Below the pieces are notes generated by a model. The model saw only the letters and a program-made list of their open reading frames with translations, ran no database searches and was not told the DNA's origin. A stretch of DNA of 64,000 bases from Escherichia coli (lineage in GTDB: Bacteria > Pseudomonadota > Gammaproteobacteria > Enterobacterales > Enterobacteriaceae), in the NCBI RefSeq assembly GCF_003018255.1, contig NZ_CP027440.1; one strand, given 5' to 3'. This document shows positions 4,001-51,454 of this stretch, piece by piece. Numbering within the stretch: position 1 is the stretch's first letter; each line of letters starts with the position of its first letter. Made by a program: the position numbers and the translations under genes.

Positions 4001-4996
4001 ATGGAGCTGCTCTGCCCTGCCGGAAATCTCCCGGCGCTTAAGGCGGCCATCGAAAACGGCGCAGATGCTGTTTATATCGGGCTAAAAGATGATACCAATG
4101 CCCGTCACTTCGCCGGCCTTAACTTTACCGAGAAAAAATTGCAGGAAGCGGTGAGTTTTGTCCATCAACATCGCCGCAAACTTCACATCGCGATTAACAC
4201 TTTTGCGCATCCGGACGGTTACGCCCGCTGGCAGCGCGCCGTGGATATGGCGGCGCAGTTGGGTGCCGACGCGCTGATCCTCGCCGACCTCGCCATGCTG
4301 GAGTACGCCGCCGAGCGTTACCCGCATATTGAGCGTCATGTGTCAGTGCAGGCTTCGGCGACCAATGAAGAGGCGATTAACTTTTATCATCGCCATTTTG
4401 ACGTTGCCCGCGTGGTGCTGCCGCGCGTGTTGTCGATTCATCAGGTGAAACAACTGGCACGGGTCACACCTGTCCCGCTGGAAGTGTTTGCTTTCGGCAG
4501 CCTGTGCATTATGTCGGAAGGCCGTTGCTATCTGTCGTCGTATCTGACGGGTGAGTCGCCCAACACCGTGGGCGCGTGTTCTCCGGCCCGTTTCGTGCGC
4601 TGGCAGCAAACGCCGCAGGGACTGGAATCTCGCCTGAACGAAGTGCTGATCGACCGTTATCAGGATGGCGAAAACGCAGGTTATCCGACGCTGTGTAAAG
4701 GGCGTTATCTGGTGGACGGCGAGCGCTATCACGCGCTGGAAGAACCCACCAGTCTCAATACCCTGGAACTGCTGCCGGAGTTAATGGCGGCGAATATTGC
4801 TTCGGTGAAAATTGAAGGCCGCCAGCGTAGCCCGGCGTATGTCAGCCAGGTGGCGAAAGTCTGGCGTCAGGCTATCGACCGTTGTAAGGCCGATCCGCAA
4901 AACTTCGTACCGCAAAGCGCGTGGATGGAGACGCTCGGGTCGATGTCCGAAGGCACGCAAACTACCCTTGGCGCGTATCACCGTAAATGGCAGTGA
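4001..4996 (+). CDS. ubiU: Peptidase U32-family protein UbiU (YhbU), O2-independent ubiquinone hydroxylation
   Basis: Track ORF 3974..4996 trimmed to ATG 4001 (MELLCPAGNLPALKAA...) with AGGA RBS; clustered Cys (FGSLCIMSEGRCY). Confidence 0.93.
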   Translation: MELLCPAGNLPALKAAIENGADAVYIGLKDDTNARHFAGLNFTEKKLQEAVSFVHQHRRKLHIAINTFAHPDGYARWQRAVDMAAQLGADALILADLAMLEYAAERYPHIERHVSVQASATNEEAINFYHRHFDVARVVLPRVLSIHQVKQLARVTPVPLEVFAFGSLCIMSEGRCYLSSYLTGESPNTVGACSPARFVRWQQTPQGLESRLNEVLIDRYQDGENAGYPTLCKGRYLVDGERYHALEEPTSLNTLELLPELMAANIASVKIEGRQRSPAYVSQVAKVWRQAIDRCKADPQNFVPQSAWMETLGSMSEGTQTTLGAYHRKWQ

Positions 4997-31476: not shown

Positions 31477-32910
31477 ATGCGATTTTCCAGATTTATCATC
31501 GGATTGACCAGCTGTATAGCGTTCAGTGTTCAGGCCGCAAATGTTGATGAGTACATTACTCAACTCCCCGCTGGTGCCAACCTTGCCCTGATGGTGCAAA
31601 AAGTCGGCGCGTCGGCCCCCGCTATTGATTACCACAGTCAGCAGATGGCGCTGCCCGCCAGTACGCAGAAAGTGATTACTGCACTGGCGGCGTTGATTCA
31701 ACTCGGCCCCGATTTTCGTTTTACCACGACGCTTGAAACCAAAGGCAATGTGGAAAACGGCGTACTTAAGGGTGACTTAGTGGCGCGATTTGGTGCCGAT
31801 CCGACGTTAAGACGTCAGGATATTCGCAATATGGTCGCGACTTTGAAAAAATCTGGCGTCAACCAAATCGATGGCAATGTGTTGATAGATACCTCCATTT
31901 TCGCCAGCCACGATAAAGCCCCCGGCTGGCCATGGAATGACATGACACAATGCTTTAGCGCTCCGCCTGCCGCCGCCATAGTTGACCGCAACTGTTTCTC
32001 CGTCTCGCTCTATAGTGCCCCAAAACCTGGTGATATGGCTTTTATACGCGTGGCATCTTATTACCCCGTTACGATGTTCAGCCAGGTACGCACCCTCCCC
32101 CGTGGTTCTGCCGAAGCGCAATACTGCGAGCTGGATGTGGTGCCAGGCGACCTGAACCGCTTTACGCTGACCGGATGCCTGCCACAACGTTCTGAGCCGC
32201 TCCCGTTGGCTTTTGCCGTGCAGGATGGTGCCAGCTATGCTGGAGCAATTCTGAAAGATGAGTTAAAACAGGCAGGTATCACCTGGAGCGGAACACTGCT
32301 GCGTCAGACGCAGGTTAACGAACCCGGAACGGTAGTTGCCAGTAAACAGTCGGCCCCGTTGCACGATCTGCTTAAGATTATGCTGAAAAAGTCGGACAAC
32401 ATGATTGCCGATACGGTTTTCCGCATGATCGGCCATGCGCGCTTCAATGTGCCTGGAACATGGCGGGCCGGGTCGGACGCCGTGCGTCAGATCCTGCGCC
32501 AGCAAGCCGGTGTCGATATTGGAAATACCATTATTGCCGATGGTTCAGGGCTTTCGCGGCATAACCTGATTGCTCCCGCCACCATGATGCAGGTGCTGCA
32601 ATACATTGCCCAACACGACAATGAACTTAACTTTATCTCTATGCTGCCGCTGGCGGGCTATGACGGCTCTTTGCAGTACCGTGCAGGTCTGCATCAGGCG
32701 GGCGTGGATGGAAAAGTCTCAGCGAAAACCGGTTCGTTGCAGGGGGTATATAACCTGGCGGGATTCATTACCACAGCGAGCGGGCAACGAATGGCGTTTG
32801 TGCAATATCTTTCTGGCTATGCAGTAGAACCGGCGGATCAGCGTAATCGCCGTATTCCGTTGGTACGTTTTGAAAGCCGTTTGTATAAGGATATTTACCA
32901 GAACAATTAG
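31477..32910 (+). CDS. dacB: D-alanyl-D-alanine carboxypeptidase/endopeptidase PBP4
   Basis: Track ORF, 477 aa; signal peptide; active-site STQK. Confidence 0.96.
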   Translation: MRFSRFIIGLTSCIAFSVQAANVDEYITQLPAGANLALMVQKVGASAPAIDYHSQQMALPASTQKVITALAALIQLGPDFRFTTTLETKGNVENGVLKGDLVARFGADPTLRRQDIRNMVATLKKSGVNQIDGNVLIDTSIFASHDKAPGWPWNDMTQCFSAPPAAAIVDRNCFSVSLYSAPKPGDMAFIRVASYYPVTMFSQVRTLPRGSAEAQYCELDVVPGDLNRFTLTGCLPQRSEPLPLAFAVQDGASYAGAILKDELKQAGITWSGTLLRQTQVNEPGTVVASKQSAPLHDLLKIMLKKSDNMIADTVFRMIGHARFNVPGTWRAGSDAVRQILRQQAGVDIGNTIIADGSGLSRHNLIAPATMMQVLQYIAQHDNELNFISMLPLAGYDGSLQYRAGLHQAGVDGKVSAKTGSLQGVYNLAGFITTASGQRMAFVQYLSGYAVEPADQRNRRIPLVRFESRLYKDIYQNN

Positions 32911-32950: not shown

Positions 32951-34138
<1,188 letters not shown>

Positions 34139-50339: not shown

Positions 50340-50608
50340 CCGTCAAGCAAACTGTTGAAATCACAAACAAGCTGGGCATGCATGCCCGGCCTGCAATGAA
50401 GCTGTTTGAATTAATGCAAGGTTTTGACGCAGAAGTGCTGTTACGTAATGACGAAGGTACCGAGGCCGAAGCCAACAGCGTTATTGCACTGCTGATGCTG
50501 GATTCTGCCAAAGGACGGCAGATTGAAGTTGAAGCGACCGGTCCACAGGAAGAGGAAGCACTGGCCGCCGTTATCGCCCTCTTTAATTCTGGTTTTGATG
50601 AAGATTAA
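50336..50608 (+). CDS. npr: Phosphocarrier protein NPr (PtsO)
   Basis: Track ORF, 90 aa; HPr-like His in GMHARPA; ATGA overlap with rapZ. Confidence 0.95.
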
Positions 50609-50754
50609 TCTTCATCACTTTGACATTCAAATCCCTTCAAGCTCCCCCCGACAATAAGAAAATCACGTACTGAAATCGTTCTCAATCAACGTCATTTGTA
50701 CATTTTGTGCGCTTTTCACTTTCAGAAGAACCTTAAGAAAACCTTAAGAAGCAT

Positions 50755-50771
50755 TGTTTAGGTTTCGTTTA
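50755..50771 (+). promoter_or_regulatory. Candidate PhoP box upstream of yrbL
   Basis: TGTTTA-ggttt-CGTTTA direct repeat (PhoP consensus (T/G)GTTTA-N5-(T/G)GTTTA) about 50 nt upstream of the yrbL ATG, followed by a TTAAT -10-like element. Confidence 0.5.
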
Positions 50772-50821
50772 AGTTAATCGACCATACTGGAGATCGTCAG
50801 AAAATATTTCCAGGAGATGGC

Positions 50822-51454
50822 ATGATTCGCTTATCTGAACAAAGTCCCCTGGGCACCGGAAGACATCGGAAATGTTATGCGCATCCGGAAGATGCCCAAC
50901 GCTGTATCAAGATTGTCTACCATCGTGGCGATGGTGGCGATAAAGAGATCCGCCGTGAGTTAAAGTACTACGCGCATCTTGGTCGCCGGTTAAAAGACTG
51001 GAGTGGAATACCGCGCTATCACGGTACCGTTGAGACGGATTGCGGAACCGGTTATGTCTACGATGTGATTGCAGATTTTGACGGCAAACCCTCCATTACG
51101 CTGACCGAATTTGCTGAACAATGCCGTTACGAAGAAGACATTGCACAACTGCGCCAGCTACTGAAACAGCTGAAGCGTTATTTGCAGGATAACCGTATCG
51201 TGACGATGTCGCTGAAGCCGCAGAATATCCTCTGTCACCGCATCAGTGAGTCAGAGGTTATCCCCGTCGTCTGCGACAACATTGGTGAAAGCACATTGAT
51301 TCCACTGGCGACCTGGTCGAAGTGGTGTTGTCTGCGTAAGCAAGAGCGGTTATGGAAACGATTTATCGCCCAACCGGCGCTGGCTATTGCCCTGCAGAAA
51401 GATCTGCAACCTCGTGAGAGCAAAACGCTGGCCCTCACTTCGCGCGAAGCTTAA
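50822..51454 (+). CDS. yrbL: Uncharacterised protein YrbL
   Basis: Track ORF, 210 aa, [32 protein letters not shown]... Confidence 0.9.

Follow-up and report, generated by a model that had tools for sequence, protein, structure and literature searches.

The perfect 11-bp tandem repeat upstream of yrbL in this E. coli genome is very probably a BasR/PmrA operator of the yrbL promoter; from the motif, its spacing, its conservation and the secondary literature we put the probability at roughly 0.88. The promoter is a textbook dual-input promoter (PhoP on, PmrA/BasR off), and this dual control, with activation by PhoP and repression by PmrA/BasR, is already known biology. The repeat would be the second input, and the main value of the assignment lies in annotation. 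The window (the whole stretch of 64 kb that was analysed) covers the site within the rpoN-operon/npr - yrbL - mtgA region of E. coli, with the following features around the promoter:

50696-50715, no strand assigned: block A (TTGTACATTTTGTGCGCTTT), an invariant upstream block, 36 bp upstream of the BasR box
50729-50750, no strand assigned: perfect tandem 11-mer, AACCTTAAGAA twice, from the sequence and Tandem Repeats Finder
50732-50748, minus strand: predicted BasR/PmrA box (CTTAAGAAAACCTTAAG on the plus strand, CTTAAGGTTTTCTTAAG on the minus strand), at about -59 to -43 from the predicted transcription start site (TSS)
50755-50771, plus strand: PhoP box TGTTTA-GGTTT-CGTTTA, at about -36 to -20, overlapping the -35 region
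50783-50788, plus strand: -10 hexamer CATACT, 11 nt downstream of the PhoP box, invariant in 12 aligned species
50790-50791, plus strand: predicted yrbL TSS, by homology with Salmonella (32-nt leader) through the alignment
50822-51454, plus strand: yrbL coding sequence, PhoP regulatory network protein YrbL, PF10707

A perfect tandem 11-mer upstream of yrbL

The 11-mer AACCTTAAGAA is found twice in tandem, at 50729-50739 and at 50740-50750, and Tandem Repeats Finder picks up an array of 2.4 copies with a period of 11 there (50724-50751, score 49); the coordinates and the program agree that the repeat described in the first-pass annotation is real. It does lie upstream of the TGTTTA-N5-CGTTTA hexamers, but not immediately so, as had been stated: four nucleotides (GCAT) intervene between the end of the second 11-mer (50750) and TGTTTA (50755). 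The order in the intergenic region is cagaag, AACCTTAAGAA, AACCTTAAGAA, gcat, TGTTTA, ggttt, CGTTTA, agttaatcgac, CATACT, gg, and the ATG of yrbL is at 50822, 67 bp further on than TGTTTA-N5-CGTTTA. A consensus scan of 50550-50850 for promoters and terminators, on both strands, called no sigma-70-like promoter and no terminator.

The repeat is the only perfect tandem duplication with a period of at least 11 in the 64-kb window, where 0.02 would be expected (chance expectations per window are taken from 200 first-order Markov simulations). The window's only other perfect tandem repeat with a period of 9-15 is CGTCACCGC at 33991-34013, with a period of 9.

A predicted BasR/PmrA box in the repeat

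The PmrA box consists of CTTAAG/xTTAAT half-sites 5 bp apart, a direct repeat of YTTAAK, and is bound head-to-tail by a PmrA dimer (PMC3973317; PMC10927774). The core of the tandem 11-mer reads CTTAAG-AAAAC-CTTAAG (50732-50748, with hexamers starting at 50732 and 50743), which is the only exact YTTAAK-N5-YTTAAK in the 64-kb window (0.11 expected). Because CTTAAG is palindromic, the yrbL site is also a box on the minus strand (it scores 12 of 12 YTTAAK positions on both strands), and for the same reason the strand of the BasR box is something we infer. The site has the hexamers of a PmrA/BasR box, its 5-bp spacer and 11-bp period, a likeness to boxes of the same organism, and conservation.

We compared the site with the boxes of the BasR-activated promoters arnB, pmrR, and eptA of K-12, read in the direction of transcription: CTTAAGGTTAAGTTAAT at arnB, CTTAAGGTTCACTTAAT at pmrR, and CTTAAGGTTGGCTTAAT at eptA. 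The minus strand of the yrbL site (CTTAAGGTTTTCTTAAG) matches the extended BasR consensus CTTAAGGTTNNCTTAAT derived from these three promoters at 14 of the 15 specified positions, with a single mismatch, and it agrees likewise at 14/15 with the E. coli arnB/eptA/pmrR boxes written as CTTAAGGTTnnCTTAAT. Every other site in the window differs from the extended consensus at two or more positions. A site with two mismatches, CTTAAGGGTGACTTAGT at 31765-31781, was rejected; it lies inside an ORF of 477 aa (31477-32910) and is within chance expectation. A further copy of AACCTTAAGAA stands directly upstream of the BasR box in the K-12 eptA promoter (at about 4655-4673 of the extracted region, minus strand), and this extra copy provides a third CTTAAG hexamer (CCAACCTTAAGAACTTAAGGTTGGCTTAAT). 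The BasR box was reportedly described as a TTAAnnTT direct repeat in a genomic-SELEX study; our full-text literature search for the BasR-site sequence gave no relevant match.

The literature on yrbL itself points the same way. PmrA binds and represses the yrbL promoter in E. coli according to Zwir 2005, as cited in PMC3335776; repression of yrbL by PmrA is also stated in PMC4196223; and "BasR, PhoP" are the regulators given for yrbL in PMC4145685. A transcriptome study of 2026 on iron-evolved populations of E. coli B found yrbL among the genes most down in just those populations in which eptA, arn, basR, and pmrR were most up (PMC13405929), although this anticorrelation between yrbL and the BasR regulon comes from evolved populations and is indirect as a test.

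The PhoP box

The hexamer repeat downstream of the 11-mers is the PhoP box of yrbL, which was previously established: TGTTTA at 50755-50760, the spacer GGTTT, and CGTTTA at 50766-50771. Compared with KGTTTA-N5-KGTTTA it has one mismatch (the C at 50766), a level at which the window has two matches against 0.75 expected; because such one-mismatch matches are not rare, the significance of the box lies in its position and conservation and not in a motif count. The published subclasses of the PhoP half-site are (C/T/G)GTTTA (PMC3335776), and these take in the half-site of the window that starts with C.

In Salmonella, yrbL has a PhoP-activated, architecture-I promoter with a single box in direct orientation, TCGTTTAGGTTTTGTTTAA (Zwir et al. 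2012, PMC3335776); the promoter was mapped by S1, with 11 nt between the box and the -10 hexamer CATACT downstream of it and a leader of 32 nt (PMC3335776). The window has the same arrangement, a direct repeat oriented like the gene and 11 nt to CATACT, and this shared geometry bears out the reading of the hexamers as a PhoP box that the first-pass annotation had proposed. Its placement of yrbL in the PhoPQ regulon also stands, given the activation by PhoP in Salmonella (PMC3335776) and the data from Shigella, where PhoP-P shifted a yrbL promoter fragment in EMSA and yrbL was ∼50-fold lower in a phoPQ deletion mutant (PMC5775216). Architecture-I PhoP promoters (mgtA, phoP, slyB, and yrbL of Salmonella) likewise have one direct (T/G/C)GTTTA-N5-(T/G/C)GTTTA box, 11-12 nt upstream of the -10 and overlapping the -35 region, and the layout in the window is alike; the difference is in the second half-site, CGTTTA in the window where K-12 and Shigella carry TGTTTA.

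The PhoP half-site with its flank, GTTTAAG (50755-50773), includes TTTAAG, which is a legal PmrA half-site, and the PhoP box region of C. amalonaticus scores 12/12 as YTTAAK-N5-YTTAAK. Scans for PhoP and PmrA motifs can therefore cross-hit.

Conservation of the yrbL promoter across species

We compared yrbL promoters from 11 other species found by genome scan and seven more found through protein homologues. Conservation alternates along the promoter. Block A (50696-50715) has a mean column identity of 0.96 with 18 of 20 columns invariant, and is followed by a linker to the BasR box with an identity of 0.55 and 0/13 invariant columns; the BasR box itself has an identity of 0.95, with 14 of its 17 columns invariant, including all five of the spacer AAAAC (12 species). 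The gap between the BasR and PhoP boxes falls to 0.62 (0/6 invariant), the PhoP box has 0.88 (9/17), and the -10 hexamer 1.00 (6/6). Conservation of the BasR box is no lower than that of the PhoP box. Beyond about -100 upstream, the intergenic region cannot be aligned between genera.

The BasR box is present in Escherichia, Citrobacter, Salmonella, Siccibacter, Pluralibacter, Cedecea, and an Erwinia sp. Escherichia, Citrobacter, Salmonella, and Siccibacter all keep the BasR and PhoP boxes at an offset of 22-23 bp, in agreement with the published distance of "∼24 bp" from the PmrA box to the PhoP box of yrbL (PMC2681069). On the minus strand, E. albertii, three Citrobacter, and Pluralibacter have the canonical CTTAAGGTTTTCTTAAT; the box is TTTAAGGTTTTCTTAAT in Salmonella, CTTAAGGTTTTCCTAAT in C. 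amalonaticus, and CTTAATGTTTTCTTAAT in another Escherichia species. All species examined score 12/12 for YTTAAK on the minus strand, and 10 to 12 on the plus strand. The E. coli box appears to be best read on the strand opposite to yrbL, while in E. coli itself, with 12/12 on both strands, the orientation is ambiguous. Cedecea and the Erwinia sp. have a CTTAAGGTTTT element on the plus strand, at other distances from a PhoP-like box. Pluralibacter combines a perfect BasR box with a decayed PhoP box. Among the papers on yrbL that we searched, none was found to state that the PmrA box lies on the opposite strand, that the repeat arose by point substitution, or that block A is conserved.

A possible mechanism and other candidate regulators

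BasR is a response regulator of the OmpR/PhoB family. Fe3+ or mild acid gives rise to its phosphorylated form, BasR-P, by way of BasS and, in some species, of the PhoP-induced connector PmrD. BasR binds as a head-to-tail dimer to a pair of YTTAAK hexamers that begin 11 bp, or roughly one turn of the helix, from each other, and because of this spacing a good BasR site resembles an 11-bp tandem repeat. In the window, the BasR site (50732-50748) is 6 bp upstream of the PhoP box (50755-50771), and the half-sites start at 50732, 50743, 50755, and 50766, at intervals of 11, 12, and 11 bp; with these intervals, and 6 bp between the boxes, BasR and PhoP dimers could bind side by side on about the same face of the helix. 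In low Mg2+, PhoP-P activates yrbL, and BasR-P on the adjacent site (about -59 to -43) would repress the promoter, most likely by sterically hindering the binding of PhoP-P or the upstream contacts of RNA polymerase. Repression by occupancy fits better than an activation that depends on geometry, since in the core group the box is oriented away from yrbL; it also fits better with the opposite orientation and other distances in Cedecea and the Erwinia sp., and with a box that outlasts the PhoP box in Pluralibacter.

Another member of the OmpR family, such as the BasR paralogue QseB, could be the main user of the site, but we consider this very unlikely; QseB may, even so, use the site as well. 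The QseBC and BasSR regulons do overlap in shared targets, and a qseB-mutant lineage had yrbL down and arn up, as in a basR-mutant lineage (PMC13405929); this qseB effect can, however, run through cross-talk with BasR, the literature assigns the repression to PmrA/BasR (PMC3335776, PMC4145685, PMC4196223), and the sequence of the site agrees with that of BasR boxes in the same genome.

It is very unlikely that BasR uses the box to activate a divergent transcript on the minus strand, running towards npr, with any effect on yrbL being secondary. Such a transcript would explain why the best match is on the minus strand, in the orientation of the activated promoters, and why the invariant block A then comes "downstream" of the box; but no -10-like hexamer is found 10-12 nt past the box, unlike in arnB (TAAAAT) and pmrR (CATACT), the linker of 13 bp is unconserved, and no sigma-70-like promoter was called on either strand. 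Nor did we find a conserved small ORF or an Rfam RNA, and beyond block A the sequence is unalignable between genera.

The repeat had also been suggested, on first inspection, as a second binding site, and in this it seems to have been read correctly, though for a different regulator: for PhoP the suggestion fails, and the motif is that of BasR/PmrA. A second, upstream PhoP site that tunes PhoP activation in an architecture-II-like manner is highly improbable. The two kinds of half-site are related (GTTTAAG contains TTTAAG, and the PhoP box of C. amalonaticus has 12/12 positions of two YTTAAK hexamers), and some PhoP promoters do have two boxes (PMC3335776). Against this, the repeat is without a GTTTA core, the promoter is classified from footprinting as one with a single PhoP box (architecture I; PMC3335776), and the repeat has a 14/15 match to bona fide BasR boxes.

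Origin of the repeat and its variation within E. coli

The 60-mer at 50722-50781 is ungapped in 5,395 of the 5,426 complete E. coli genomes, and 603 genomes are identical to the window over it (the identical records listed include O157:H7 strains). For the 36-mer at 50719-50754, 5,167 genomes are ungapped, of which 1,999 match the window exactly and 3,160 match it with a single base difference. K-12 differs from the window by two SNPs, a G at 50750, making its second copy AACCTTAAGAG, and a T at 50766, making its second PhoP half-site the canonical TGTTTA. The A/G difference at 50750 is a common polymorphism at the last base of copy 2, outside the 17-bp BasR box, and the C at 50766 is an allele common to O157:H7-type genomes. 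With 5,395/5,426 genomes ungapped and polymorphism confined to the last base, the repeat is species-wide.

Neither a one-copy form nor a length difference of 11 bp was found in the ∼5,400 E. coli genomes, across the 12 species, or in any genus. The first-pass annotation had asked whether the duplication is strain-specific; it is not, being ungapped in nearly all E. coli genomes (5,395/5,426) and found at the same place in Citrobacter, Salmonella, and Siccibacter. Its idea that the repeat might alter spacing fails too, no length change having been seen in the genomes and genera compared. It had further named a repeat present in all strains, together with a PhoP box located elsewhere, as grounds for giving up its reading: the former is what we see, while the PhoP box is where it was said to be.

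Starting from the sequence in Salmonella and C. amalonaticus (AACATTAAGAA|AACCTTAA), the perfect repeat of E. coli is one substitution away, A to C at 50732; starting from that in E. albertii and Citrobacter (AATA...), it is two substitutions away, and in both cases the length is constant. Thus the two copies probably became identical at 11/11 positions through point substitution at one or two sites within the lineage of E. coli, with no DNA duplicated: an ancestral canonical box (minus-strand CTTAAGGTTTTCTTAAT) would have become two identical CTTAAGGTT half-sites by substitution. A neutral, functionless, recent duplication of 11 bp by replication slippage, as the adjacent and 11/11 identical copies and a chance expectation of 0.02 per window might suggest, has next to no probability and is effectively ruled out by the absence of length polymorphism in any genome or genus, the ancestral state being already a repeat at 9-10 of 11 positions (AACATTAAGAA|AACCTTAAxAA) and the element among the best-conserved parts of a fast-diverging intergenic region. 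For genome scanning this means that a strong operator of the OmpR/PhoB family can mimic a tandem duplication, because such operators are direct repeats with a period of 11 bp, and that a comparison of length between strains separates the two.

One clinical isolate, E. coli Ecol_AZ161 (NZ_CP019012.1), has an IS66-family element, ISEc23 (tnpA, tnpB, and transposase), in the yrbL promoter. The insertion is at about the -10 hexamer (about position 50787 of the window, and from about 2687 onward in the extracted locus), and it cuts the PhoP and BasR boxes off from yrbL.

Block A and the rest of the npr-yrbL spacer

Block A (TTGTACATTTTGTGCGCTTT) is unique in the window; it does not vary in 18 of its 20 columns across Escherichia, Citrobacter, and Salmonella, and its distance to the BasR box is fixed at 36 bp. 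The block can still be made out in Siccibacter, Pluralibacter, and a diverged yrbL paralogue of Enterobacter hormaechei, which has kept block A and lost a good BasR box. The pattern of conservation makes block A a candidate cis element of the same promoter module.

Searches of Rfam found no family for block A, only a sub-threshold and meaningless snoRNA match, and a full-text literature search with its sequence gave no relevant match. By-eye fits to sigma-54, CRP, RstA/OmpR, and RcsB motifs were all too poor, and we rejected them. An ORF of 21 aa with a TTG start (50696-50761) spans block A and the box; it was rejected as well, given a stop at codon 4 in Citrobacter Awk4 and R56, four different bases at one second codon position, and conservation that runs in blocks and is not 3-periodic. 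A structured RNA at the yrbL promoter was likewise set aside, Rfam giving only the sub-threshold snoRNA.

A further proposal, tentative and in our judgement rather doubtful, is that the promoter forms a rigid module of three elements, in which block A might be the site of a third regulator and the BasR box would act through repression by occupancy, at a strength set by the allele. The occupancy part would be indicated by a box kept in either orientation across the Enterobacterales and symmetrised to CTTAAGGTT halves in E. coli; the alleles that would set the strength of repression are A/G at 50750 and C/T at 50766.

Further upstream, four loci from other genera have a short GC hairpin with a U-tract just past npr (-10 to -13 kcal/mol); for two of these hairpins the evidence is from folding only, the terminator scanner having made no call. 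The E. coli npr-yrbL spacer (50609-50695) folds into nothing stable (-2.5 kcal/mol, z = +1.35), and no terminator was called in it, so transcripts of the rpoN operon may read through into yrbL in this species.

Comparison with known PmrA- and PhoP-regulated promoters

The closest relatives of the yrbL box are those of arnB (pmrH), eptA (pmrC), and pmrR, which have the form CTTAAGGTTnnCTTAAK and the same period of 11 bp, in the same genome and for the same regulator family. These boxes point with transcription, lie about 10 nt upstream of the -10, and activate, whereas the yrbL box, when read on its better-matching strand, is directed away from the gene, sits upstream of the PhoP site (about -59 to -43), and represses according to the literature. 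In addition, the second half-site of the E. coli yrbL box is CTTAAG(GTT), compared with CTTAAT at arnB, eptA, and pmrR.

The pmrD gene encodes a connector that activates PmrA, so that repression of pmrD closes a loop; we know of no loop-closing role for YrbL. The promoter of Salmonella pmrD follows the same logic as that of yrbL, being a PhoP-activated and PmrA-repressed "bi-fan" or feedback promoter (PMC2681069), with a PmrA box near a single architecture-I PhoP box (PMC2681069; PMC3335776), but the distance between the boxes is ∼38 bp (PMC2681069) as against 22-23 bp at yrbL. A comparable BasR box was not found in the pmrD promoter of E. coli K-12.

The PmrA box of pbgP in Klebsiella and Salmonella (CTTAAT-ATTAT-CCTAAG) is similar in having tandem head-to-tail hexamers 5 bp apart, and differs from the yrbL box in its hexamer variants and spacer and in being an activating site (PMC3973317).

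The YrbL family in other sequences

A contig of 420 nt filed under "Tannerella forsythia ATCC 43037" (contig135, NZ_JUET01000135.1) encodes YrbL residues 1-129 with 99% identity to E. coli, and it is almost certainly E. coli contamination. In a human gut metagenome contig (ERZ920441), we observed two adjacent, convergent genes of the YrbL family (PF10707) by a dnaE-like gene. They are ∼51% identical to YrbL of E. coli, and neither PhoP nor BasR boxes lie upstream of them. Since these genes adjoin a dnaE-like gene, the YrbL family also exists outside the npr-mtgA context.
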